This document shows, piece by piece, positions 14,371-60,400 of a DNA stretch of 64,000 nucleotides. The DNA is taken from assembly GCA_963924565.1 (NCBI GenBank), contig OZ004613.1, positions 21,638,001 to 21,702,000 on the forward strand, read 5' to 3'. Position 1 is the stretch's first letter. Each line of letters starts with the position of its first letter. The notes beneath the pieces are model-generated. The model did no database searches, was not told the DNA's origin, and was given only the letters and a program-made list of their open reading frames with translations. A program made the translations under genes and the position numbers. Source of the stretch: Ascidiella aspersa (taxonomy: Eukaryota).

Positions 14371-17272
14371 TACGGTACGTACGTGCAGTTTGAACTCTTA
14401 CCTTCGGTATGATCACCTGTGTACTTTCCTTGAACTCCAACTGAACCGAGGTGCCAGCAATTTACACCCATCGCGTAACTGCTGGCAGCAGGCAGGCTAC
14501 TGTGAGTTGTCCGGTGATTTCCGACTCGCGTTTTAGTCACGGCTGGCGAGGGAGAGTCTGACGTCATTCGGACGATCTGACGTTTCACGCATGAACGATC
14601 GAGCGGCGAAGGTCTCTGAACCTTATTTTCTTCCGTCTGATCTCCGGTCGCCAGGCGAAAGTGCTTTAACTTTGATCCGAATGTTTACCATCACCACTTG
14701 GAAGGTGCTCCACAGTTAGTCGAGCCCTGTGCGATGTTTACGCTGGTCAGTGACGCTCGGGTTGAGAAAAGTTGTACTTTCTCCGTTGGGCGTGTATTTT
14801 TAGCAAGCCCAGCACCAAAAGGTTTTTAAAACTCAGTGGTCGACCGTATTGTCGTATCTAGCAAGATAATGCTTACTAAGTTAGATAAGATACTCAGCGA
14901 ATATGAAGTTTAAAAATAGGGCCAATGGGACATAATCAGTAAATAAAGCGAAGGTGTTCAGAGCTTTCCAAGCTTAGCTCAACGTCGGTTTTCTTTATTT
15001 GCAAACCAATGCTCGCCTTCCGAAAAAAATCCACCTTTTAGTCACGCAAAACGGTCACGTTTGGCCATTGCGCGTATATGTTTTGTCTGGGCGTCGACGT
15101 ATCTTCTGGCAATAAAATGGGAAGTAAAGTGCATCCTTGTTGCTTTTATACTTGCGCTCTACCAAAACACGAATTTTATTGCCGTTTTTTATCTCGTTCC
15201 TGTAAATTTAGGTTTTTGCTTGTTTTTGTTAAGACCAAGCCCGTAGTGCAATATGGCACGGGACGTTTTATGGTTCCAGGCGACAACTTTTATTTGTGTA
15301 TCGTGTCGCATTGTTTTGTCGACTGCAACCTGGCCATTCGGGTTCGCTCCGAAAATGTAAACAAGCCTAGCTTCAACTGAACTCGGTTACTTTTTGACTC
15401 ACGTGTAGCGATTTGCAAATGGGAAGCGAAAAGCAAAAGGAAGTTTTGTTATTCGTACGTAGCCGCGTGGACGTTTTCTGAACTCGCTTATTTGTTGTTT
15501 ACCACTCAATCCTGAAGTAAAAAAAAACATTGCGGATGATATTATGGAAATTTTAAAGTTTATTGTTGACTTCTTTTGTATTTTTTGTTTAGTGATGGTT
15601 GTAATAAGCTTTCTCCATTTTATAACAGCTATCTGCTTTTGTATGCCATATAGAAAAAAGTTCAACTAAAATGTCTGCTTTTTGTAATAATGTCGCTTCA
15701 ACCCTTTTGACCTGTGTTCGAATCACTTCAAAAGGGCTTGTACTTGGCGGTTAAGGTCAATATACTGTGGTGCAACTTTTCTGGTTTGCTTGCATTTACA
15801 AATAGCACAAGAGGCCAAAGCTCGCAGCTAAGTTGAAAAAAAATGTGTTTACTCATTCGCGCCAACCGCGACCGCCACTTTGGCAATCCAATCGAAAAAC
15901 GACAAATTGCCTTGGAAACCGTAAATTGCATTTTTCCGTCGATTGCCAGACGAGGCGCAGAAACCGCGAGAAGGGGAACCATATGATAGACGAGCCCGGC
16001 TGCCTATTGTTTATGCAAGCGCCTTTTTTTCTTTGAGCACGTTTTTTTTGTGTTTTGCATGCGATGGGGATATATGGACCGACGCAACGGTTTGTAGACT
16101 TTAAGAAAGAGCTAAAGGTGGTTATGATAACTTCATTGCAAATGGATTGTTTGTACCGCTTGGTCTTTAAAAGTAACTTGTTTACAGAACGCGTTTTGAC
16201 CTTCCTTATATGCCAAACGTGTGTATGAATGTAAGTGCCTTTGAACGCTAATTTTTCTGCCTGTTTATAACACCTCATGGTGATTCAGGCTCGCGCCAGT
16301 TTGTCAGCGGCCCATCGTCATTTTATAAGAGTAGTTTGTAATATTCCAGCACGCTTTTAGCGTGGGCGGTGCATCGTCTTGAAAAAAGTCAGACACGATA
16401 TGGTGCAAAACGCCCGTCGTGGTCTCGCAAGTCAGAAAGTTGATCAAGGAATTTGTTGCGGAGTCGAACGATAGGAGCCATTAACGCTAATGTGATGTTG
16501 TAGCTCGAATGGCGGTTTGAAACCTGCTGTAAGCACTTTGAGGTTTTTGCTGTTGTTGAGCCTGGTTTAAAAATGAGGGATGCGAGTTGTAGTTTTGTTA
16601 TCACTGTTCATTCAGCAAGGAAAGAGAAAGTAGTAAGCTTGTTTGTAAACTCTTTGGAAGTGTTTACCCTAGAAAGCGAAGCTACACGATAACTTATTCA
16701 CGCGTTGTAATCACTACCAATCTGAACCTTGTGTAATGATTTTAAATTGAGTTATAATGAGAACGTTTTCCCTTGGCCCTAGAGAAATAGAGAGAATAAT
16801 TTAAAGTAGTTGAAATGTTAATCATTAATGTATCTCTATCTAATTAATTGAATTTTGTTCTGTCGCTATAAGCGCTACAACCAAAAAAATATTAGTGAAA
16901 TAACCAGCTGGAAACGTGTCCTATTTTATGTTATTAGCGCCAGTTTAGAAACAATTCATAGTACACTAATATTTGCGTAAACGTTAAAAAGATATCTTAC
17001 TAGTGACGAGGTATGAATTAGTCAGCTTTACAGGATATGCTACCATAAAGATACAAGTTGTAGGGTACCTTGACAAAATGCTGATGAAATCATCTGCAAT
17101 CTTATTTTGTTGATGCAGGCTCTGTAAAACGAATTGCGTGTGAATATATAAAAACAGCAAACAGTTCTTAGCAGATTGTTTTTACACGTTGTATTGTATC
17201 CGGTCCGCGCATTGCGTTTCACCGTTCAAGAATTCCCGGCATTGACCTTAAACGCACTTTTTTGTTTTACAG

Positions 17273-26300: not shown

Positions 26301-29300
26301 TTCCCCATCTACATCGACACCGTCAAGAAGGGCTCGATGGCTGAAGAAAAGGGCGTTAACCGAGGTAGGTGTGCTTAATCCGCACTGTTCACTGTCAGAT
26401 GCGAGTTTCTTTCAAATTAAATGTCTTTTCCTACAAAGAATGTATTGTTGTTATCACTTTGCCGCCATTATATGTAAATTGAGTGAGCGCGTTCGTGTAA
26501 TTTTGTTTGTGTACTAATTTTTTTTTTTTTTTTCTTATAAAAAAGTATGCGCAAGAAAGACTGAGAATGGGTTTGGTGTAGTTTTTATAAATTTTTCCCA
26601 TTCCGATATCCTTTGAATGGTGTAATAAATTCATTGTGGCGACTGACTGGACTAGATACTACTATTTTTATTAAAACGTTTTGTCATTATTAACATCAGA
26701 ACCAACATTTATTTTCAGGCGACCTTTTGATGGAAGTAAACGGCCAGAACTTCGAAAAACTTAGCAAGGAAAAGGCGCTCTCCATTCTGAAGAAAAACAC
26801 CGAATTAAATCTGACCCTTAAAACCAGCTTGTTTGGTAAGTAGAAATGCTTTGTGATTGTATTTGTCGCCGAATACCCTTCTTGACAGAATAAATTGATT
26901 TTTATATCCCTAAAAAGTGTTTCGTGTTTTTTTTAGTACAATTGCATTGGGGGATTATTCTACGGCGTCTATAAAAAAGTGTTTGATAAACCAAAGTAAT
27001 AAATAACGGTCAGCTTTGCAAAACACAACCTGTAGATATTAGTTTAATGTTTTCACGAACTGTCGGCTTCAACCTCGCTTAAAGGCTTGTGGCCTCTCCC
27101 GAACGTGTATTTAACTTATAAACGACCGCAAAAAAGCAAAAACAAACCCACTCTTGATCAACGAACTTTCTCGAACAACGCACCCGTCCAATGACGCTAT
27201 CTCTTCTCTCGTTTCCCTTCCAGCGTTCAAGCAAATGCTGGAAGAGCTGCACAACCCGCAGAAGAAGAAAAAGGGCAAGGGCGACGATAAGCTACCGCAC
27301 ACGCCAGGGCACCGCGCCGGGCGCATGTCGCTCACTATGATGTCAGAGAGCGGCGCCGACACTTACGACACCAAGCACAGAAAAGGTGCGTATTCTCTTC
27401 GGTTACTATTGTGTTCCCGAAAAACTCTTATTTTATATAACGTTGAGCGATGTAAATAATAATCTTCATGGGCTTTGCCTTGTGTAAGAAAGGCTATTAT
27501 TTTATTGAATTTATTTCGGCTGTTTGGCGGCAGTTTTATAATCTGTAAACCCATTTGTTGCAAAATTAAACATATTGAATAATTGGTCTATCATATGATT
27601 GGTCAAAAGTAACAGAGTTTCTCTATATATAAAAATCTGATATCGGTATAACTATTGTTTAAAAATGTTGTTTTTTACTCCTATTTACTGTAGAATTTTA
27701 AAATCCTAAAAGTAAACTAGCTTTATTATATTGATTAATGTTCCGCTGGCGGCTTGTTGGTTTGCCGAGAATTTCCTCTATGTCGTGCATACAAAACGCT
27801 GGCAAATGAACCTTGTTTTTGTAGCCTCGTTTGCGGGAAAAACCCGAAAAATGAGCATTCTGAACAAGATATCCAGTTTTCCCAACTACCTGAACGTGTT
27901 TATGTCGTAAGTGGCCCCATTTCTGGTCCAAACACCAGAAAAAAAACGACTTGTAGCAGTCTAATGGCTGCTATACAGTGCACCCCGAAATGTAGATGTT
28001 TTAGTTTTAGCCGTGATATTGTCTGTAGTGCATAACGGTGGCCATTAATTCATTTGGTAGAGGGTAGTTTTGATTACTGTGGGGGTGGGTCGTTTTCGGT
28101 TTCGTACAAGACCCATAAATACATCTGCTTACGTGATGCCGTTTCCTAAACCTTTTTTGGCGAGGAAATTTTGTCACGCTGTGGATTTAGCACAACGCTT
28201 ATGATTAAAGTCATTGGAGGATCGAATAGTGAAAAAACTATTTTACCACCCGACAGGCGGCGGATCGTTCACCGCCAAAACAAAGCGTTTTATCACGAAA
28301 CTTCACGTGCTGCCGAAGATGATCACGTTCGAGTAAGTTCTCTCGTAAAAAGCTTCTTTCTCGCGCACACTTTTGCACTCACGATCTATTTCGTGTCCCA
28401 AGCTCTTACCTCAGTCTACTTGCAGCCTTTGCGTCGCGTAATTGCGATCCTATCCCACACCCACACCGCTAACCGCTTGACTCTATAAAAATATGTAGCT
28501 GCTTCGTTGTATAGCAGACTGCTAGCCTGTTGACCTCCGCCTGTTTTGCTTTTCCCTTTCTACAACTACAACAATTAAACGTTGCAGGTGGGACGCTCGG
28601 CCGCGCCACAAGTAAACTTAAGAAAATGTTTCGCAAAGACAATAGCTATAACGAATTTATGGCCAGACAGTAAGTCGTCGTGATATTGGATTCCGTTTTT
28701 TTATTTTTTTTACTTTTATTTTTACGTTGCGCCGATCTATTTCTATTTTCGAATGACTTTTTCTCAAATCTTTGTATTGAGAAACAAAACAATCAAATCA
28801 GTTTTTTGTTTTTCTTTTGGTTTTGATTACTCTGAATGTTAGACTGGATATACTTTTGAAGTTCCTTGAACAAACATCCATTGATTTAGGAAGATTTTTG
28901 CTTCTACAAATGAGTAGCAAGCTACTAGATACAAACTCGTTCTTAGGAAACAAATTAACTTCCATTACATTTTTTAAAGAATATACAATCTTGATTGTTT
29001 TCTGCATTATCTTAAGGCGCGAGCATCATAAATCACTCACATTCATTTCATTTGTCATCATTTACTTGTTTTCTACAAATTTTCGTTCACAACACAAATC
29101 TAACACTTGCATGATTAACATATCTTGAGCACGCTCATTTGTATTTATGGCTAAAGACTGGAGTATGTTGAATTAGAAAATTAAAAAATAAAAAAATAAA
29201 TGAAATTTAAATAAAATTAGTGTTCTCTTTTTCTAAATAGGTACACAAAAAATTATATATTTTTTTTAATTTTAAAAAAGGTTACTTCGCATTACGTTCT

Positions 29301-32300
29301 TTGCAATGTGTTCTGCATACAGGCGTGCTCATGGTCTGTTCAAAATATTCTGATTTCCACCATAAGTTCCAGTTTTGTTTTGTGGTGTGTTACCGTGTGT
29401 TCGAGTTTGCATGTGCTTATGAGTAGCTTTTGTAGGCGCCGCATGATTTTTGCCTGGTACATTTTTAGCATGTAATAAATTGTTCTTGTTTTTTTACTTA
29501 AAAACATAACATAAAACAATTTACAGTTTACAGTAGGAATGTGGCACTTGTAAACAGTACTCCCTGTATTTGTTTTTATTGTATTAAGATTAGTTGTTTG
29601 CCATAAGCTCATCCAGAACCTATGTTACTTTTAAAAAGTTTTTTTTTTCTTTATTAAAAAACACAAAATTCTTTATTTATAACGTTGTATAGTATAACCG
29701 TGCCACATTCGTGACTGGTAAAAGTTTGAATAATTAATAAACAAATAATTTACAATTTAAAAATGCCGACAACCACGCAGCCCAATGTTTGTTTGGTAAA
29801 AAAAACAAAAACATTTTAATTGTATAACAAAACGGTAAATATTGAAATTTGGCTCTGAATTGCAGCATTTTGGCGTTGCTTGGCATTGTGTCGCTTGTGG
29901 CTGTCGAAAGGTGTTGAACTTGTTGTAACAAAAAAATAATGATAAACGTAACTTTGTGCACTTGGTGACATGTTAACCGACAGTCGTCTAACCATCTGCA
30001 TGTTGTTTTTTCTTTCCCTCCGCATTGCCTCACCAACCAACCAACCAACAAATACACATACACCCTAAAAAACAAACACTCACGCCCACCCTCACTTCTG
30101 TCGCATACACAACGTCCTGTCAATCACGCGCCCATATTTACCTGTGTATGACTGAAACCCCACGCACGAATCCCTCGTCTACATCTGCATTGCCCTGTAA
30201 ACATCCCATTTCTGTTTTCGCCACTTGGTTTTGCCGCTCATTGCTCTTGCGCCGTCGTTCAATTTTTTTTTTTTTTACCCCACCTTAAACAAAAAAACGT
30301 GACAACTCTTTATTCGTTTCAAATTTTCGCGATAAACGTTCTCGATTTTTATCGAACGTGACGACTTCCGAAATGCCACCGCGCCATTAACCCCTGGCAA
30401 AACGTTGAACGTCGAAACGTGTTGCATTTTCTTTTGCGTAACCTTTTGTAAACACACACTTGACTTTTAAATAAAATTTCCTTTAATAACGCAAAAACTG
30501 CCATTTCAAAAATTCCACCGTGCTTATAAATATTTATATTTTTTCTGTGTAAAATTTAATTATCCATGATATCCACAATCCATTTTCCCATTATATGTAA
30601 AAATAAAAATCACTTGCCCTAATACTCGTTAAAACTAAAACCAACCACACACGAAAAACCTCAAAAAAAAAAAAAAAAAAATCCCCAATCGCATAAATAC
30701 GATACTTCAACACCCACCAAACAATAAATAACACCGAACACTCAAAAACACCTATTCACCACCTCCACAAAACCACCCATCATACAACAAAACCAAAACA
30801 GTGGGGGAGAGGGTCAGATGAGCGTCGACGATTCGTTCCTGGCGCCGAGTTCGGCCCGGGCACGCCTGGCGCCGGGCTCTTTCGCCACCGTGGACGGCCC
30901 CAGGTCCTTCAGGCAGAGTGCCACCTTGAGCCTGAGCAATCCGGACCTGCTTGATCCGGCTGCGCTCGAAATCGGAATGGTGCAAGGTAAAGCAAGGCGC
31001 TGTTCGCGCGGACGAAAATCTCCAACGTTTCTTTGTGGAAGGGAATTTTTTTTTTGTTTTTTTGAGTATTTTTATGCTTTTTGGTGCCAAAAAGCTGCGA
31101 GCAACGATTATCTCAGCTTTTATCTATTGGGGACCCAAGAAATTATAATTCGTTGTTGTTACAACGGTCAATCAATAACCGTCCTATGAGACTGCTATAA
31201 TAAAGGTTGTTCAGTAAAGTGTACAGGGTTGTACAAGGCTTTTTGAAATGTCTTGTAAATCTATCTGTGTTATACAAAAAGTTATGTTTTGCCTGTTCTG
31301 GGTTGTTGGGGCTGATTCTCAAAACACCAGAACTTTTAGCAAATCGACTTTTCATGTCTGTGTTGCCCCAAAATTGTATTGTGTATTCCCCTAAAAAAAT
31401 ATAATATTTAGAGCCAAGTATCCTCGCTGCAGTAGGCCGCCTTTAGATCATAATGTTTGTCCCTTTTCTTCTCACTTATGCGTTGTTTTATTGTCCTTTC
31501 GCGAGACACCAAATGTACAACCCGTTTTAGTGCACGCCAATCGTCGCCTAACATTTCCAGTCCTGGTTAAGTAGGGCGTGCGAGTAAGGCTAGCCAAAGT
31601 CCTATATTCTGTAATTAGGACAAATGCCTGTACCAAGTGTTGAAATCGGTTCTTCAGATACTTTCATGATTTCCACTTGTTATCCAATCAGACTGTCTTG
31701 TTAAATATCGGGTACTGGTAAGCGGTACATAGGTCACCCCTAAAGCAGAGGCAGCCGGTTTGTCTTTACAACCCCAGCTAACAGTGGCCTTTTGCACGTT
31801 GTTGCGTTTGCAGAGGTGTCAGAGGACGTACTGAAGGTGTACCGGGCCGACCAAACGCACCGCTTCGTTTGCGTGAACCGAGACACGACCGCCGGGGATG
31901 CGGTGATCTTCGCTTGCAAGGAGTTCGGCATTATCGACGACGTCGATAACTACGCCCTGTATAGAGTAAGAGGCTCGCTTTCGATAACTACCGTTGATAT
32001 TAGCTGCCACTTGAAACACACTTTGAAAATTATGTGTTTTTTATCGAATAATGGCAATTTCTTTTAATGTTACTCAGACGCGATCTGAACAATATATGTC
32101 AAAACCGTGGTGTTTTCATGTGGAGTAGACTGACCATAAACGTTAGAGAAAGATAAGTTTTTATCGCAATCTGCAAAAAAGAGATTTAAATCTAACACCG
32201 GTCGCGAAATTTATGGCTTTTTTATTGATTGTACTTTTTATCTTCTCGGAATTGTAACGTCCATGCAAATCGCGTGTATATCGCCAGGTTCGTGTAAAAT

Positions 32301-38300: not shown

Positions 38301-41300
38301 AAACAACTAAAGTCAAAGTCAAGTGTTTTTGAATAAATAAGTCAAGTCCCAGTCCAAGTCATCAGTTGCGCAAGTCAAGTCCCAGTCAAGTCATAATTAG
38401 AGCAAGTCAACTTTAAGTCATGTCCTTGTTAAAAAATAAAATTTTAAACTATTAAAATTTTTAAATTTGTATGATTATGAGCAATAACTGAACTAAAAAA
38501 TAAGAAAAAACGCAACATATAGCAAGCAATTTGTTTTATGTGCTAAAATTTGGATAAATAGCTCAATTTTATAAAAAACATTTGAAAAAACGCTTTATTT
38601 TAACCCAAGTCATTTGTCCAAATGACTTAAGTCAAGTCAAGTAATTTGTCCGAAAGACTTAAGTCAAGTCAAGTCATTTTTCCCAAATGACTTAAGTCAA
38701 GTCAAGTCGTTTGAAAACAGTGACTTAAGTCAAGTCATTGACTTAAGTCATTACAACACTGCTACACAGGCTCCTAATGGAGCATGTCGAGAAACGCTCC
38801 ATTACCTGCTGCATCCAGTTCGTACATAAAACATATTTAAAGGGTATCAACAGCCCGAATTGAGCAACTGAAATATACACAATGTGTATTCTGTGATCAA
38901 ACCCTTCTGGGCTCGTATTGGCCAATGATAGCGGCACAGAAATTCCTGATTAGGCTGACTGATTTCGGTGAGCCTTTGTAACGTCATCCGGTGCAGAAGA
39001 AGATAACAACTGGGAAATAAATATATGTGTTGTAAATTTTTACCTATACTTCTTTATGGGCTTTGATATTCATCCTACAATAAACACACTTTCGAAATTT
39101 CAGCCTTGTAAATGTTTCCCAAATCCGTGTAATTCCAATTTCCAACAGCCTTGTAATAGTTTCCAAATCCTCGTTTTCCAGGCAACGACACTTTGGTCGA
39201 GGGTCTGATCAACTTCGAAAAGATGAGGATGATAGGGAAGGAGATCCGGAACATCTGCCGCCTCTGTGTGTCCGACTCTTCCCAGATACTGCCGAGCGCG
39301 GCTGCGTAAGTGACTTGTTGATTCATTAGTTTTGCAGCTACTCAGCTGGAATTAGATCCATAAAAGTTAACATCTCCTGGTCAATCTTTTCGTCGTCCTT
39401 TGCCGGCTTACACATTTTTATTTTAGTGCTCGTATATGTACTGTTTGGTATACCACCTTACACTGCCTATAATGTATCCTTTTCTATGGCATTGGTCAAC
39501 CCGGCTTACTAGGTGTTGTTATAAGTGCTATGCCCGCACAGCATATTATGGTGTTTTTTATCTTTTCGCCAGGTAACAATTTACGTTTTGCCACAACAAC
39601 AGAGATCTCTTTTATTTTGTATTACTCTTTGAAAATTAACACTGAAAAAAAAAAACATGGGCTCCTTTCCTTAAATTGTGAATCATTTTAAAGATTGGAA
39701 AAAATAAACTGAAAGAGATTTTTGATCACAAAATGTAAAACCAACGTTTCGAAACAAAGAATAATAAACAATAAGCCAACAAATACCAACCAAAAGCGTT
39801 GCGCCAAACCGACCAATCGTTTTGCCGCCACAGTGCCCACCAGAAGGAAATGGAGAAGGGTACGTCATCGATCTACACGACCTTGACCCGACGGGGTCGA
39901 AGGTCATCGTTCAACAACGCGCGTCGAATGTACGAAGACCAGCTGAACATCAGGCGGGTCAAGCAGTTCATGCAACAGATGGAGATCATTTCGGACGAAG
40001 ACAAGCTCATGGAGATGTCCAAGACTGTCGAGCCAGTCGTCGGTTCGTGACTTGTGATATCTTGTGACGTGAAATATTATTGTAACTTTATTTAGCTCTG
40101 CGTATACTGTAGGGCAACTTCAAAAGAGTGTGCGAGAAAAAAATTGAAACCTGTAACGAATGCGTAACTTTGACAAGACCTTTTAAAGGAAGCGGCATTC
40201 ATTTTTAACTACAATTTCAAGTAGAAACCTTGCGATGTTTTGTTTAATAATATAGGCTTACAAAGCAACAAACATCAGGCTCTTGTTCAGTTATTGTTTG
40301 CATGTGTTCTGATAAGACTTTTGAAATGCTTCTAAACAGTCCTTGCAATATTTAATGTTAAAACCCTGATAAAAAAACAGTTTTGTCAAATATTCGATGT
40401 TCTCGACACAAGCCTAAAAATTTAAACATTTGTCCGACGTAAATCGCAAATGTTTGCTAACCCGAGCAAATCTAATTTGACTTTTCACATTCAGCCAATA
40501 AACCGTCAGAGAGCCTTTCTAAAAACTAACAGCTCAAACCTTACAAGGTTTTATTAAAATAAACCACAGCTTTATATATAATCATTCCTCCGATTTCAGC
40601 ATCCAACTCGGCCGGCAACCGTCGCAAGAACCAGGGCATGGACTCGCCATCCCGTTCCTCCAAAACGCTCCCAGCAGGAGCCCGGAGCGGATCCGGAGGT
40701 TCCGGAAGCGGAACTCTTCCCGCACGAAACAACTCCGAGTCCCAGATCTCCTCCGTGCCCGTGATCGCGCTGCATCCATCCAGGAAGAAGATTCCTGTAT
40801 CATCGCTGCCAAAATTTGGTATGCTTATGTTTTATAATGTTAACATCAGGTTAATTTTTTTAACAGGTATCAATTTTATTCGACGCACATGATTAATCTT
40901 GATAGTGAATCGCAAAGCCATAAAGGTCGAGTGGATTGACATCTTCTTGATTAAGACGTTTCGATGCGAGCTTCATTTTTTTATTTATATCTTTCCTAAA
41001 TATTTTTATATAAAATGATCTCTTGTCTTTGTCTTTGTTTTAATAGTACAACTAGCAAATTTCGAGTCAAGACACTTTCTTGCTTTTCTTACCACTGCAC
41101 TTTGCATGAAAAGCACTTACTTTCTTTGCATTTCTCTCTTTTTTTCCTCCCACTCTCTTCCCAGTTGTCACTCCTCCTCCTTCTCCCACGCCCTCCTCCT
41201 CTTTAGCGCACCAATCCAAGACTCCCACGTCACGCCTATCTAACCAACCTAAACCACAAACGACACCAGAGCACCAATCGGAGACAAGCACGTTAGAACT

Positions 41301-44300
41301 AACAAACCACGATCCCCAATGCAAGCCCCCGACCCCACCCAGGAGGCCTAGATCTGGTCGGCGTCAAAATCCACCCAATCGCTTGTCCCCAAGGTCCCCC
41401 GGTCAACCTGAAAGGGGCCGTCAGCGCGAAACTTACGCTCGAAGGGAAGATATCCCTGAAGAAAGTAAATTGAGGCCGATATCGACCTCGAGCGAGATCG
41501 TGTGTGACGGCGACCATTCGAATGAGCACAGGAGTCGATCACGGTCATTTCTGAGGGCCATCAGGTCGCGGTCGAAATCGCTGACCAGGACTTTAAAAAA
41601 GAACCGAAACAGTGCTGGTCGTAAAATGGTGATCGGGGCCCCCAAGTTGATCAGTCATCTGAACCAGGACCTGGTCGGCATCAGTTTTGCACCACCTGCA
41701 GAAAAAAACACTTGTTCGGAGTCAAGTACTAACCCCGTCGTCACATCTCTGGTTCATTTGCGCGTCAATCCTAGGCAAAGATTCCGCCACACTCGATCAA
41801 CGTCACTGCCAGGCCCCGTTATCTTCGACGAGTGCAACGAAGATATGCAGTCGTGCCAGCCTGCTTACAGCGACGCCGTTGAACAACAACAAGTCGAACA
41901 ATGCCCACATTCACCACGTCATAATCGACCGCTCTGCGTCACAGAGGCTGGAATGCCGGTGTCAAATTCGAATACTCTGGCACGCGGCGAGCAGCCGCTC
42001 TCGGTCAGCTATCAGTTTCCGTATACGACCAACTGTGACGTCACGGCCAGCGTGTTTTGTAGCCAGCGAACCGTGACGCTGGCCCGGCATGACGTAACAA
42101 AGCATGCTTCCTCGCCGGACGAAATACGCCAGGCCCTGTTGTCTTGGCAAAGACGTAGCAACAGATGGAAGCCCTAAACATTTGTTTATTTAATATGTCG
42201 CTTGTAGTTAGAACAAGGTTGTTTAAAGTTCCATATTTATTGTTGCATTTTGACGGACAATCTAGATTCTAGAAACTAACATATGTTCTTACGAATATTT
42301 TATAATAACACGTATTCTGCCGCTTTGTGATTGTGTTGTCATTCAGCAGTTTCATTATTTCATATTCAATTTTATGCTGGGGCTGACGCGATTACATTTG
42401 TTTTGCAATGATGCCTTTCGCTAATACCTCGCGTTCTCCTTTTTTTCTTTGTTCAAAAAAAATGTAAGAAAACGAATAAACTTTACTTCCTCTCCTTTTG
42501 TGACTTTCTTCTATTTATTTATACACATTAAGCTTCAAGTGAAACAAATCTTCACTAACCTGTTAACAGTTCTCGCCCGAATAGGGCCTTTTCACTTCTC
42601 TTTGGAAACTATTCTCAATTTCTGGAATATATCTTTCTAAATGGTCACTACATGTAAGTAGACAATGTTCATTTAGTGTTTTTATCTATTTAACATTTCG
42701 AATTCTCAATACACAGTGCATGCCACACTTGGCCTTTAATAACACGCGAAAATCGTCTACCTTTTGCCCATAGGAGGTCCGTTTACACTACAGCTGGGTT
42801 GAACAGAGCTGGGCGTAGAAATCGCTGGGCTTGAGTTTAGCAAAGCGTGAAAAGCTCGAAACAATAGAATTTAATTTAAATTACGCTTTGCTCAGCTCAG
42901 TGCAGCTGTAGTGTGAACGCGGCCTTTAGATAAAAGCAATTTATCTTTCATTATGCAAAAGTCTTTGATTTTTCAGGCGCCCAATCACCGCAGGCTCTGA
43001 AGAAACTCATGGCGCTTTCAGAGGAAGGCGAGGGTGGTGACAAAGGCCAAAAGAAAGCTCGCGAGTTCCGTAGATCCGAGTCGTCGAGTAGCCACGAGTT
43101 GTCGCCAAGCAACTCGCCCTATATGTCGCCGAGGCACAACGCAAAGGTAGGATGCCGCCCGCCCGAATAGCTCAGCATTTCATAAACTTTTTTTCTACTT
43201 GAGGTATACTAAAATAAGTAAAGAAAGTTCATAATACACTATCTATACAAAGAGTAATACCAAAACGTTACGAACGCCTTTAATTAACGACGCGGAAATA
43301 GGTTAATGCCATAGTATTGCCATTTTTTTAAACCATAGTTTACATTAAAGTCACGCATGCTTATGAGTAATATAAATAACTTATTTTCCTAAATTAGAAA
43401 AAGTTTCGCTACACACTGATCGACTAGTATGCCGCGACAAACAGTTTGAGAATCACTGCTTTAGCTGTTGAACAACTACTTCAGGTTAAAGTTGTAAACT
43501 GTGAAATCATTGTTCATTGCCGGCAAAGCAGAGTAAATTATTTTTTCATCAATATAGTTTTACATATTGTAAGAAAGGAGGCTTACACAAAACATTCATC
43601 CATTTGCAAACCTGATGGTGCAGTATTCGTTTAAAAAAAATATATTTCTTACGTACTTTTCACTGACCCGATTACTTAAATGGGTCGTCTTTGTGTTCAT
43701 TCGAAACTACGTTTCGGGACCGCTCCACCCCAAAAAAAAATTCATAACCGAACTGCCTACTCAAAAGGGCACAGCTGAAATCCGCGGCGGAAAGCTAGCA
43801 TTAAGCTGCCAGTCGAAGCCACTTTCCCAGCTCGCAGTACCGCCCAACGCAGCTCGTCACTGCCAACGCACGTCGTGTGTTTGTGTCCGCTTTTACGGAA
43901 GTGCCTGATCGCGCTGCGAGCGTGGCATTCGCCTTCCCGCCGTCATCACATGACGCTTAACGACGACGCGACGCTCTTGTTATTGTTCTTCGATGTCGCG
44001 CGCATGAATTATGCACGAAACGGTGCCGATCGCACACCCCGTTTATGAGCAGGGCCTACTTGCTTGTGGTTTAGGTCCGCGTGATGTAAGAAGTTGCAGC
44101 TGCTAAAGGCACTTATAAACATTACTTTATTGAATATTCGTATATTTTGTCCACAAGCATTTCTGATAGAGCCTTTATACTAATAGTAACTATTAGTAGT
44201 TTGTTTACTGTTTCTCGGACAGGGGCGAGTACCAGAAGTCGATTATATTTTTGTGTGCACGCCCCGCGTTGGCTGATCTATTCCTCTTACAACCGAGTAT

Positions 44301-53297: not shown

Positions 53298-53993
53298 CTA
53301 GTACTGGTCGGCAAAAGAGCGGCTCCAACCCACCGCCTTCGCGTTGAAATCGAGCTGGCAGTTGGGCGCGGTGACGAAAGTGCCCCGACCGATTCTGAGC
53401 CCCTGCTTTCGGTGCGGCGCGTTGCGGTGGTTCTTCGCGTTGAAGTAGATGGCGCTGGTCGGGATTCCGTTCACATAGAGCGCCTGCTGGGGCTCATTCT
53501 CGCTGCCAACGTACTCTTCCTCAGCAGCGCCGTTCATGTAGTAGTCGGCGTCGCCACCTTCAATGTAGTTTCCGGACGCAGGTTCGGCCGAAACGCTTCG
53601 TTGCTGCTGTACGCGGTAATAAGAGTCGGCTGTGTTCCACCTTCGCGGAGGCGGATTGCTCTCTTGTTCCTCGGGCATCTTGTAATTGGCCTCCACCTTG
53701 GCGCGCCACTCCGGCGGCGGCTCCGACATCGGCGGCAGAACGTTGCAGTTACCGCTCCTTATGGAACGCGCCGAAGGGCCTTTGAAGATATGCGATGGCA
53801 TGTACTTGACGGCCGTCGACGAGTTGACCGCCATGTTCCACGGGGTGGATCGCTGGTCGATTGATACTGGCTCGGGCTCCTCTTCTGCGACTTGCTTCCC
53901 GTCAGAAGACAGGCTCGTGTACTTTTCCATCCGCTTCTTCTGCTTGATGAACATCCTTCCTCCTTTTGTTGAGCTGCGCATCGTCTTCGGGTT
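53298..53993 (-). CDS. MYOZ: Myozenin-like last exon
   Basis: ctttcag|NPKTMRSSTKGGRMF...DFNAKAVGWSRSFADQY*; 232 codons, phase 0. Confidence 0.85.
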   Translation of the reverse strand, partial: NPKTMRSSTKGGRMFIKQKKRMEKYTSLSSDGKQVAEEEPEPVSIDQRSTPWNMAVNSSTAVKYMPSHIFKGPSARSIRSGNCNVLPPMSEPPPEWRAKVEANYKMPEEQESNPPPRRWNTADSYYRVQQQRSVSAEPASGNYIEGGDADYYMNGAAEEEYVGSENEPQQALYVNGIPTSAIYFNAKNHRNAPHRKQGLRIGRGTFVTAPNCQLDFNAKAVGWSRSFADQY

Positions 53994-54875
53994 CTGAAAG
54001 TAAGTAAGTGTTACTTGTCGACGGCTGATAGGCTAGCGGCCAGTCTATAATTAGAAGTTACGAGGCGATCTATTAGCGGCCGTGATTGGTGTAACGTCAA
54101 GGCGGCTCCAATTAAAATCTGACATATTGAATAGCTTTAACGTATCATTTCACGTATCAAAGGCTCAGTTTAACTTGTGCAACTAAAATTATGGCAAGGC
54201 AAACATGTATTTCCAACTAGACACAAAACGTTCATGCTATATAGATTTCGGTACAGCTCGGTATATATGAGGATATATATATATCTTAACCCTTACACAA
54301 AAAGCTAGCTGCGAAACTTACCACCTCGGCGAGAACCTTGTATCCCTTTCCGACCTTTTTGGATCGCTGCTTCAGGCGTACTTCAGGAGTAACTCTGCCG
54401 CTGTTTTCCTGGATCAGCTCTTGCGAATAAGGGTAGGACACCTTCTGCGCGCTACTGTAGCTGGGCATTTTGTTGTGGTGCACCTCTTGAAGCCTCCCGC
54501 GCTGATAGAAGGTCCTGAAGTCCCCTGGTCTGTCACCTGGGGTGTCGTACACGTGGACGTACACGCTGCCGTTGGGTCTTGGGGCCACAGGGGGCGGTCC
54601 CTTTGCCACGAACTGGGTCTTCTCTCTCTTGGCCACAGGGCCCGCCACCGCCCGGAAGGGCTTGTACTTAGTGTGTGCAATGCTATTGAACACCATTTCT
54701 TGCTATTAACACGTTTGGAGTCAAAATACAACCAAAGGCGTACAGAACTTTCCTACTTAGCCGCTTTACCGGGCTGCCACAAACCCGATCGTGGCGTGAG
54801 CGACTGAGCGGGCCAGGTGACGAACGATTCGACGAAGGCCATTAATGCTGGTCGCTGGGGAACGCTTTCCTGCAT
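53298..54875 (-). CDS. MYOZ: Myozenin/calsarcin-like protein (2-3 exons, start uncertain)
   Basis: KKVGK...TKGGRMFIKQKKRMEKYT, STPWNMA and C-terminal DFNAKAVGW occur in the order of myozenin motifs as recalled (LGKK...RGSKMFK.RQ.R.EKF, SPWE.A, FNR..KGW/QGW). Confidence 0.65.
54322..54682 (-). CDS. MYOZ: Myozenin-like exon (5' boundary uncertain: 54682, 54666 or ATG at 54696)
   Basis: ...KGPPPVAPRP...KKVGKGYKVLAEV|gtaagt; phase 0 out, matches next exon. Confidence 0.7.
54757..54875 (-). CDS. Candidate first coding exon of myozenin-like gene
   Basis: ATG-MQESVPQRPALMAFVESF...GKAA aa|gtagga; phase 2 fits acceptor at 54682 across a 74-nt intron. Confidence 0.4.
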
Positions 54876-57035: not shown

Positions 57036-57481
57036 CTAGTGACCAGTGGGTGACCATTTGGCAGGTGATACGTTAGTGGCTTTGTTTGGCAGACTGAGTA
57101 CTTTACGCTGTAGCGCCGGTGGATCAAAATCGAACATGGTCTCTTCTGGAGCATCTGTTGACAGGGCAGCCCCCATTCCTGGAGCATAAGTATCGAAATG
57201 GACGTGCCTGGCATTGTAAACTGGCTTGGTCGTGGCCCTAGATTTATCCATGACCTCCTTGTAACCTGGGGGAGGTGGCAAATTGTATTTATCAACGTTT
57301 GGTGGATCATATCGCTGGCCTGGAGACCAAACAGAAAAAGCAGGTTTCTTTAATGGTCCTTCCTGGTCTTCAGTTTTGCTTTGGTTTATTTGATGCGCGT
57401 TTTCTAGTGATATTTCAGGGTCTTGTTGCGCTATTGGGAGTTCTGGTTGATTGGTCTCGGCTGTGTTACAGGGCTTGTTTT
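57036..57481 (-). CDS. SYNPO2: Synaptopodin-like terminal exon (PPPPGY)
   Basis: ttacag|NKPCNT...LPPPPGYKEVM...SPAKWSPTGH*; minus-strand AATAAA at 56794-56799. Confidence 0.78.
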
Positions 57482-60400
57482 CTGTAAAAGAAGAGCTAAA
57501 GTATTGTCCGTTTTAATTACCTAAAGAGAAACGCAAAAGCTTGCATAAGCGATCCAAACACCAGTTAAAGGTCAAGCAAAATTACAATCATTATAATTCA
57601 CTTGTTAGAGTCTTTACAGTTTTAACATAAGCCATACTTACCATATTGAACGACCAGACTTTTGTTGGAGTCCGAGCTCAGAAATCTAACCAGATCTGGT
57701 TTGGGGGCAACTCTTGGGGGAGGCCCCTTTTTCACAGGCATCTTCGCATCATTATGAATGAACACCTCGTCCAGTGGCTGGGGCTGCTGCTCCGACGCCT
57801 TACCCGACGATGACGTGGAACCTTTGTCGTAGGATGACGTCATCGATGACGTTCCAGAGTTGTTCGAGTCGGATGCGGCGTCATCACAGTTGACGAAGTC
57901 GGCGGCCGAGGGTGGACGACGTGCGACGTAATATTGCTGGTAGTGTAGGGGGTCCTTGCCTCTACCTTTTTTGTTTCCACTTGGTCTCCTCTAAAGGTCA
58001 ATCATTTTGTTGTAAACAAACTCACAAAGTATATTTCACGAAATTACTTCACTAGGCAGGTCATTTACTAAATGGCTTAAATCTAAGCCTCAGTCGTTCT
58101 GTCTGGTCTGATTGTGTAATCAGGAAATATTTATGACAAAAAATAACAATAATTTTAGGAAAATATTGAAGTGGGTATCAATTTTGTTTTAAACTAGTAT
58201 TGTGTTTCGCTCTCCAAAATTTCGAAATGCTTTAAATGAAATAGCAGTTGACAGTCAATGATTTTATTTATCACTATTTTTAACTAAATGCTTTACAAAA
58301 TAAGCTTATGGAAGTGATTCTAAAACATTTTTCTTGTAAATTTTTTTTATCGTGACGCACTCAACATAATGAACTAACTTCTCCAGCCCTTATTTGATGC
58401 ACTCTAAAGTCAATCAATTAGGAATTAATCAACGGGCACATAAAAATTAGGTAAAACGTGCCCGTGAGAAAATGATAATACCTAAAATCAGTTTATGATT
58501 GCAGTCAAATTTCGATACGGATCATAGTATAGCGCCTTTGGAAGATTAAAACGAAGCACAGTTTGAGAAAATCAAGCTTATGGCATTGTGTCCAGAGTTA
58601 TCGCATGCACATATCACAAGAGTCAATAGTAAAATAATAAAACTGTAATAAACTGCAATAATAAATGAATAAAATAATAAAAATATCTCAAAATATATTC
58701 GTTCAATGCAACTTTTGAATAGCTTTTGTAACCGATGACAATCTCCCAAAACCTATAATTTTAACACATTAAACCTAACCCAACATGCACCAACCGGTGA
58801 ATCCGAGTCTGAAAACTTTCTAAACTCTCCCATAACGTCATTCATGCTCTTCCTGCTTTTTGGGTCGAGGGCCGGCTTCTGCTGGTTGCCCATGTTTACG
58901 AGAGGAGCTGGTACGATCCTTGCGTCCTTGCTCCCGTTGCATTCCCTAGTGTAGCGGTCCATCCGCTGTTGCTGCTTCTCGAACATTCGCGCGCCTTTTC
59001 CTTTCATCGCTCCTACAAGGAAGATAAAGTTTAAAGCAGTATCCAGCCACGCGTTTACAGCAAATGCGAGACGCGTTTCAACGTTCAATGGTCACCCAAT
59101 TTGAAGGTAGAAAGGCGGATTAATTGAGTGATATCAGGGTTATGTGTTATCAAACAGCTGTCAACCACTGACACAATCAAGTTTTTACAAGTTTTGTTAC
59201 AGTTTAGGCTTGCTTCACTTAACCTATTAAGCTCTATAAACTTTTAAAATATGAATGTTTTACCTCCTGCAATTGTTCCGAGGGCTTGCGGTTTGCCTTC
59301 ATTCTGCTTTGCTTGGTTGCCGTTCTTTAGGTAACTCACTTGCGGAGTTGCGACTTTGGTTGAAACTGGCTTGTTAAACTGCTGTGGCGTGAAACTGGAA
59401 AAGTACATCACATTTTATAAACTGCAAAAAATGTTCTGATAAAAGTTACCTTTTTGCCTTAATCGCGGTTTAACTTTTCACTAAGCATCGTGCTGTGAAT
59501 ATTTGTTATAATGATAAAGGTTGAGTAACCTGAAGACAAAGCAACAAACATTTAACCGGTACCAAGTACTTTTACACAAAAATTGCTATTAAAATCGCTA
59601 TTTCTTCTTAAAAAAGTCGATTAAATTGCAACCACGTACTCCATTCCATGCCATTACCTCTTTAAGCAAAACAACGAATCGTGTATTGTAGAGTCGTAAT
59701 ACCTTGGTCTTGATGGAGACTTGTTCTTAACGGTGGTCGCTTTGCTCTCTTCGTCCAAAATAGCGCCTAGTGACGGCGAACTTTTGTATACGGTTTCCAT
59801 TTTCGGCTCGTACTTTCCTTTCGCGGGATCCAGCAGTTTCAAACAGGCCATCACTTTCGGCTTTTCATCCGCGCTGGAAGGCTCATTTGGCTTCGGTGGA
59901 TAGACCATAGGGGAAGGTGCACGATAAGAACTGTACACTGGCGGCGGAGGCACAAAAGATTGCGAGGTGCTGACGTTCGGAACTGTGGAAACTGTACCGT
60001 TCGCTAATGATGATGGACTTTTTGGGAGGTTTACTGCTTCACACTCTATACTGACTACATCTAAGGTGTTTTGTAGAAATGGCTTGGGTAAGGGACTTAC
60101 TGCTTTTAAAACATCATTCTCTGTGGTTTGTGTATTACTCGTTTCTTCTACATTTGATCCGTTAAAAATTGTATCCTGGTATGATCGAGATGATGGAGTT
60201 GAAGAGACATCGCTGGCAGCTGGTTGGTATGTTGTGACAGGAGCAACTGCTGGAGGACTCCTTAGTTTTTCAACATGTTGTCGCTGATAAGGTGATGGAG
60301 AAGCGCATTTTAGGGGTTCCTTAAGAAGAGACACAGATGGCGAAGGTGGAGCATTTTTTACGACGTTTTGGTGTGGCTGATATGTCACTTGTGGCGTTTG

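Follow-up and report, generated by a model that had tools for sequence, protein, structure and literature searches.

The linker exons of an ascidian PDZ-GEF gene

The window analyzed here is a stretch of 64,000 nt from Ascidiella aspersa (contig OZ004613.1, positions 21,638,001 to 21,702,000), whose plus strand carries what is, judging from its sequence, the ascidian PDZ-GEF gene, the ortholog of RAPGEF2/6. The closest protein retrieved for this gene, a RAPGEF2-like protein from Phallusia, aligns exon by exon over positions 17259–50724 in a tblastn comparison, mostly with 55–93 % identity in the domain exons, and the gene is collinear with proteins bearing cNMP, REM, PDZ, RA and RasGEF domains. 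Exon U (27224–27385, 162 nt), situated after the PDZ domain, ends in phase 1 with donor GTGCGT and is supported by a spliced contig from run X3 and by tblastn with the Phallusia protein; the RA domain starts in exon E (31814–31965).

Between exons U and E, on the same strand, there are three short exons, designated C (27825–27906, 82 nt), A (28257–28332, 76 nt) and B (28588–28669, 82 nt), and a longer partner exon, D (30802–30986, 185 nt), which encodes a conserved SNPDL motif. Exons C, A and B are adjacent, all are bounded by AG and GTAAGT (TAG and GTAAGT for C) and all enter in phase 1 and leave in phase 2; the region 28200–28700 is single copy, as seen in a search of the genome. The original prediction described A and B as a mutually exclusive pair, and their coordinates, lengths, AG..GTAAGT ends, phases and translations all match the sequence. 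Their exclusive use also agrees with reads joining each of them to D and with the presence of one such exon per orthologous gene model (see below), but the exons form a trio. That description was incomplete in three respects: it lacked exon C, an in-frame skip that includes D, and an AG-free zone of 816 nt preceding D.

Exon C was found by listing every open exon running from phase 1 to phase 2 between U and D; it is one of the 11 candidates, and has a T-rich acceptor and a GTAAGT donor. Its deduced peptide is similar to the corresponding segment of isoform X2 from Clavelina (shuffle z of 11.6; 62 % over 21 aa with tblastn). The segment of isoform X2 from Styela lies in the same place and contains, like C, a basic motif of the RKLS type; it scores weakly (z of 0.4 against C from the window and of 2.8–3.2 against that of Clavelina), so that its orthology to C is argued from position and elimination.

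The length of C, A and B is in each case 3n+1 and that of D is 3n+2, and the frame is open in five of the 16 combinations: U-E, U-C-D-E, U-A-D-E, U-B-D-E and, formally, U-C-A-B-E. In this last combination A and B are read in other frames, the product is found in no protein, and the open frame is probably due to chance. As originally predicted, the frame between U (ending at 27385) and D (starting at 30802) is kept with either A or B by itself, and both together lead to a TAA after nine codons. The frameshift expected from skipping both exons does occur if D is retained, since U-D stops after six codons, but not if D is skipped as well, which is in frame. It is therefore likely that the three short exons enter the message singly and accompanied by D, or drop out together with D. 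Four proteins would thus be expected: three in which D is accompanied by C, A or B, and one lacking all of these exons.

Farther downstream, the intron following the exon that ends near 40820 contains an ORF of 354 codons (41110–42174, plus strand). Isoform X6 from Styela has its own C-terminus, which begins at the residue matching the site of this ORF and displays a similar short RSRSKS motif at its start; both could be a shared alternative last exon, their pairwise similarity not being significant (E of 0.08–1.8). In the minus strand there are long ORFs rich in proline and serine (53301–54032, 54289–54702, 57039–57512 and 57625–57990), which suggest a neighboring gene directed towards the PDZ-GEF gene.

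Splicing evidence and conservation of the cluster

Splicing of the region was examined in run X3, comprising spliced contigs from an unlabelled type of library (18 contigs aligned), and in RNA run X4, of which about 6 % was read (37 reads aligned); a junction was listed when represented by 3 reads or by a contig. Run X3 contained junctions U>A, A>D and B>D, with depths of 4.4, 3.1 and 6.1, respectively, and in run X4 we found 2 reads crossing B>D and 6 crossing D>E. In addition, one X3 contig continues after U with a 16-letter end whose unique match is the start of exon E (31814), pointing to a U>E joint. In Ascidiella, A was hence seen joined on both sides, B only on its downstream side, and C on neither. 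Junctions U>B, U>C and C>D, as well as double inclusions, were absent among those listed from the 37 X4 reads and 18 X3 contigs; given the low depth and the need for 3 reads or a contig, these missing junctions say little. Of the two paths initially proposed for comparison, 27385>28257>30802 was therefore observed in both of its joints, whereas for 27385>28588>30802 we observed B>D, U>B not being seen at this low depth. One X3 contig spans 28303–28669, including the unspliced intron between A and B, and is then joined to D, which fits splicing of B to D taking place first. In both runs, the first base of D (30802) is C instead of T; this is the third position of a split codon and the change is silent with A or B.

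The X3 contigs also cover the introns U-C, C-A and A-B, with depths of 4.6–7.9. Together with the failure to see U>B or any junction of C, and with the existence of an in-frame ATG inside B, this coverage would be compatible with only A and the full skip being productive in Ascidiella, with the B-D RNA keeping its upstream introns, either because it is detained or internally started, and with C being silent. We consider this very unlikely, because B and C retain open frames, consensus splice sites and a clear likeness to exons that follow U in the models from Styela and Clavelina, and because, at such a shallow depth, a missing junction carries no weight.

Gene models from Styela include B in isoforms X1, X5 and X6, A in X3, C in X2 and the full skip in X4, and those from Clavelina include B in X1, X3 and X4, A in X5 and X7, C in X2 and the full skip in X6; the models of each species thus cover all four forms, C-D, A-D, B-D and the full skip. 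The sole Phallusia protein carries A, and three JGI proteins correspond to the full skip. The tunicate set comprised 27 proteins, some of them older versions of the same model, and 3 were excluded as fragments without the region; the remaining 24 informative proteins were distributed into 10 with B, 6 with A, 2 with C and 6 with the skip. Neither two cluster exons together nor D alone occurred in any of the 24, although these are counts of gene models, which are in frame by construction, so that the lack of double inclusions does not prove exclusion. The full skip including D, present in 6 of the 24 proteins and in the U>E end from the reads, means that one of the exons is not always included, as strict mutual exclusion would have it. 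Exon A matches the segments from Styela, Clavelina and Phallusia with z of 11–18, and B those from Styela and Clavelina with z of 6.4–8.1. That tunicates have a real and conserved cluster, in which three alternative exons depend on a partner exon, is well supported.

Outside the tunicates, 105 proteins were gathered, and 17 without anchors were left out, being either fragments or cluster members of another kind. Each of the 88 anchored proteins contained one fixed segment and the full linker of 150–175 aa (82 identified by pattern and 6, from Lingula, by eye). Since the three versions and the deletion are common to three lineages of ascidians, and the 88 non-tunicate proteins, from ants to frogs, have a single version that is always present, the cluster is an ancient novelty of tunicates in a core activator of Rap1. 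Proteins from Ciona or amphioxus were not among the matches of the homolog searches. The small in/out differences between isoforms from octopus and fish coincide with the A/D and D/E junctions, suggesting that these are old intron positions. A profile-free search with exon D among 1.84 billion representatives produced five matches, two of them already collected and three to repeat-like proteins, and the two loci found in a metagenome scan for orthologous introns were judged to match by chance, since they lie in prokaryote-like DNA and lack the structure of the gene.

Both A and B had been thought to resemble the single segment of vertebrates. Among outgroups in general, the resemblance is clear for A, the exon most similar to their segment (shuffle z of 3.7–7.4 with hemichordate, brachiopod, ant and octopus, but of only 2.0–2.4 with frog and fish), but the likeness of B is weak with vertebrates (z of 2.0 or less) and reaches 4.7 with the brachiopod. 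An origin of the exons by duplication, now extended to C, is likely but unproven, the exon-to-exon similarity being weak as protein (z of 4.5 for C-A, 2.2 for A-B and 2.2–2.5 for B-C) and with z of about 1 as DNA.

The intron preceding exon D and exon choice

Exon D is preceded by an AG-free zone of 816 nt (29984–30799, plus strand), where 25.6 AG would be expected. None of 20000 shuffles of its own composition reached zero AG, none went below 9, and 74 of its 76 G are preceded by C or T, and none by A. The AG-free length at 20 other candidate acceptors was 5–85 nt, and the next-longest gap in the window was 162 nt. In the genome background, with 20603 gaps from both strands of 20 stretches (200 kb), unmasked gaps measured up to 233 nt, and none was of at least 300 nt. 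At the 5′ edge of the zone there is a predicted distant branch point (29973–30030, plus strand), with TTAAC at 29973 or CTAAC at 29988, TGCATG at 29997 and a pyrimidine tract starting at 30001 (18 of 20 pyrimidines); a second pyrimidine run is found near 30260, inside the zone. Conversely, the acceptor of D has no nearby pyrimidine tract, with a T fraction of 0.08 before the AG. This layout, a long AG-free zone with a branch motif and a pyrimidine tract at its 5′ end, is the one described for distant branch points in the available part of PMC1431707, which also mentions large AG-free zones without relation to a distant branch point and cautions that repeats can give rise to such zones. The zone is likely to mark a very distant, predicted branch point for D. 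In DNA run X2, we found one substitution in 561 nt of the zone versus 28 in 2083 nt upstream (p = 0.0045), which may be due to constraint or to a shared haplotype.

The intron between B and D (28670–30801) contains TGCATG, the Rbfox site, at positions 29108, 29408 and 29997, exactly where they had been predicted; 0.7 copies would be expected (p = 0.033, uncorrected). It also contains 47 YCAY motifs versus 27.8 expected, part of this excess resulting from the C/A-rich AG-free zone. In the plus strand, these motifs define a predicted Nova-type YCAY cluster downstream of B (29020–29070; 7 YCAY in the 100-nt bin starting at 28970), a predicted composite of the Rbfox/QKI type, CTAAC-TGCATG-TTAAC (29100–29119), and a TGCATG accompanied by two GCATG (29408–29472). 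According to the available part of PMC12445529, Nova from Ciona acts in motor neurons by means of YCAY clusters located after the exons that it regulates. Of the muscle or neural control originally suggested, the neural one is, by analogy with this precedent, plausible for exon choice in the cluster.

We consider it probable that the linker, encoded by the three exons plus D, is governed by a distant branch-point gate and by an order of splicing in which a donor is first joined to D; the gate is the best reading of the data and is unproven. Exon D, lacking a local pyrimidine tract, would rely on the branch point and tract situated about 810 nt upstream, and would in this way be the gate. With the gate closed, U would be joined to E and the conserved linker would be lost. 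With the gate open, for which Nova- or Rbfox-type factors are candidate openers, one of the three GTAAGT donors would be joined first to D, with the physical removal of any cluster exon downstream of that donor, and U would afterwards be spliced to the exon already fused with D. Double inclusions and half skips would be shifted in frame and would undergo nonsense-mediated decay. By itself, this order does not account for the skipping of C and A in messages with B joined to D. Besides, in the available part of PMC5378181 distal branch points are associated with exon skipping and with introns that tend to be spliced late, and the latter counts against an early splicing of B to D here. More tentatively, and with less confidence than in the gate with its splicing order, tunicates could have converted a linker that other bilaterians keep fixed into a four-state switch, gated by the branch point that the AG-free zone holds open and with splicing order selecting one of three duplicated exons, that operates without steric block or docking.

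The forms observed could also be obtained from frame logic by itself, by near-independent inclusion of the exons and subsequent sorting of the products by decay, with no active gate; the AG-free zone would then be a by-product of an intron rich in A/C and poor in G, in agreement with the 9 % G of the zone and with the absence of GGG in the B-D intron, where 15 would be expected. We regard this as improbable, because the expectation of 25.6 AG already takes into account the composition of the zone, none of its 76 G following A, because the start of the zone coincides exactly with the branch-point-like motif and tract, and because three independent exons would imply that most transcripts are wasted.

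Exclusion of the steric type requires that the branch point of the downstream exon be separated from the upstream donor by no more than about 50 nt. The introns separating the cluster exons are of 350 and 255 nt, with AG-free zones of 25 nt before A and 60 nt before B, and steric exclusion was discarded; the zone of D, about 1320 nt from the donor of B, makes it impossible there.

Competing RNA base pairing between docker and selector elements could also impose exclusivity on a real trio, for instance through a G-rich element (28079–28093) pairing with 30081–30095 or with the A-B intron, or a UG-rich element (29868–29903) that would pair with the acceptors of exons B and A. Among the ungapped helices of the region, 28079–28090/30084–30095 is indeed the strongest (−28.4), the best partner of the element at 29868 is the acceptor of B (−34.2, beyond 12 of 12 shuffles), followed by that of A (−28.5), and there is an inverted repeat on both sides of D (30654–30685 and 31041–31072, 88 %). 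However, the stems in the region are not above chance overall (35 versus 29.7 ± 5.6 in 60 shuffles), the best helices from shuffled sequences average −24.1 and reach −35.7, and the candidate elements were chosen after the scan. Also, the eight best partners of the element at 29868 do not include the acceptor of C, the fifth of them, at 27740, being situated some 55–85 nt upstream of this acceptor, and the repeat flanking D is chiefly poly-A/poly-T. Docking thus seems an unlikely basis for exclusivity. The downstream arm of this repeat contains a 21-letter insertion in run X1.

Protein consequences and relation to known systems

All the exon variants are basic, with a net charge of +3 to +6. 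Exon B has a hydrophobic moment of 0.79, equalled in 15 of 1000 shuffles, and is amphipathic in the three species compared (15, 74 and 15 per 1000 shuffles); the amphipathicity of A and C was not above that of shuffles. In the model of the octopus ortholog, the linker is disordered and its lone helix, at residues 552–559, is the counterpart of exon A and has low confidence (pLDDT about 41). The full skip would consequently entail the loss of the A-type helix and of the SNPDL-type motif that outgroups retain. The isoforms are likely to differ by the exchange or loss of a short basic helix, along with SNPDL, in a disordered linker, with a likely effect on localization or partner binding and not on the catalytic domain. 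A literature search returned nothing on the SNPDL serine, and the isoforms constitute a natural set of swaps for learning the function of this conserved and poorly understood linker motif. In turn, the AG-free zone offers a direct test of the scanning range of the spliceosome, and of splicing order as a means to enforce exclusivity; ascidian minigenes are feasible, as the available part of PMC12445529 indicates. A description of the cluster was not found in the literature searched; supplementary exon tables, such as those of PMC5703972 and PMC10573349, could include it.

The cluster shares features with several known systems without coinciding with any of them. Insect docker-selector clusters, such as those of Dscam, 14-3-3 and Mhc, contain more than two exclusive exons, as does the PDZ-GEF gene, but base pairing in the region of the latter is not above chance. 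The vertebrate RAPGEF6 exon 21A, a 24-nt cassette regulated by Nova (PMC10178952, available part), likewise represents regulated splicing of a disordered PDZ-GEF stretch, but it is situated downstream of the RasGEF domain and is not mutually exclusive. Among the tandem-duplicated exclusive exons treated in the available part of PMC5703972, the IIIb/IIIc exons for the IgIII domain of Fgfr, with a third exon, IIIx, in amphioxus, are also same-phase neighbors used singly, and here too an invertebrate chordate has an additional exon specific to its lineage. The PDZ-GEF exons differ in that their product is a basic motif within a disordered linker and not part of a fold, in that their 3n+1 length needs a downstream 3n+2 partner, and in that omission of the entire cassette preserves the frame. 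Finally, D resembles the exons with distant branch points described in the available parts of PMC1431707 and PMC5378181 in being alternative and in having an AG-free zone with motif and tract at its 5′ end; unlike those known exons, its zone precedes a partner exon and lies far from the donor of B. The branch points mapped in the available part of PMC1431707 are at 100–400 nt, and the prediction for Fugu PTB exon 11 is at 590 nt, so that the 816 nt of D are about twice the longest mapped distance, and are exceeded by the unverified AG-free zone of 1126 nt in human PTP-sigma.
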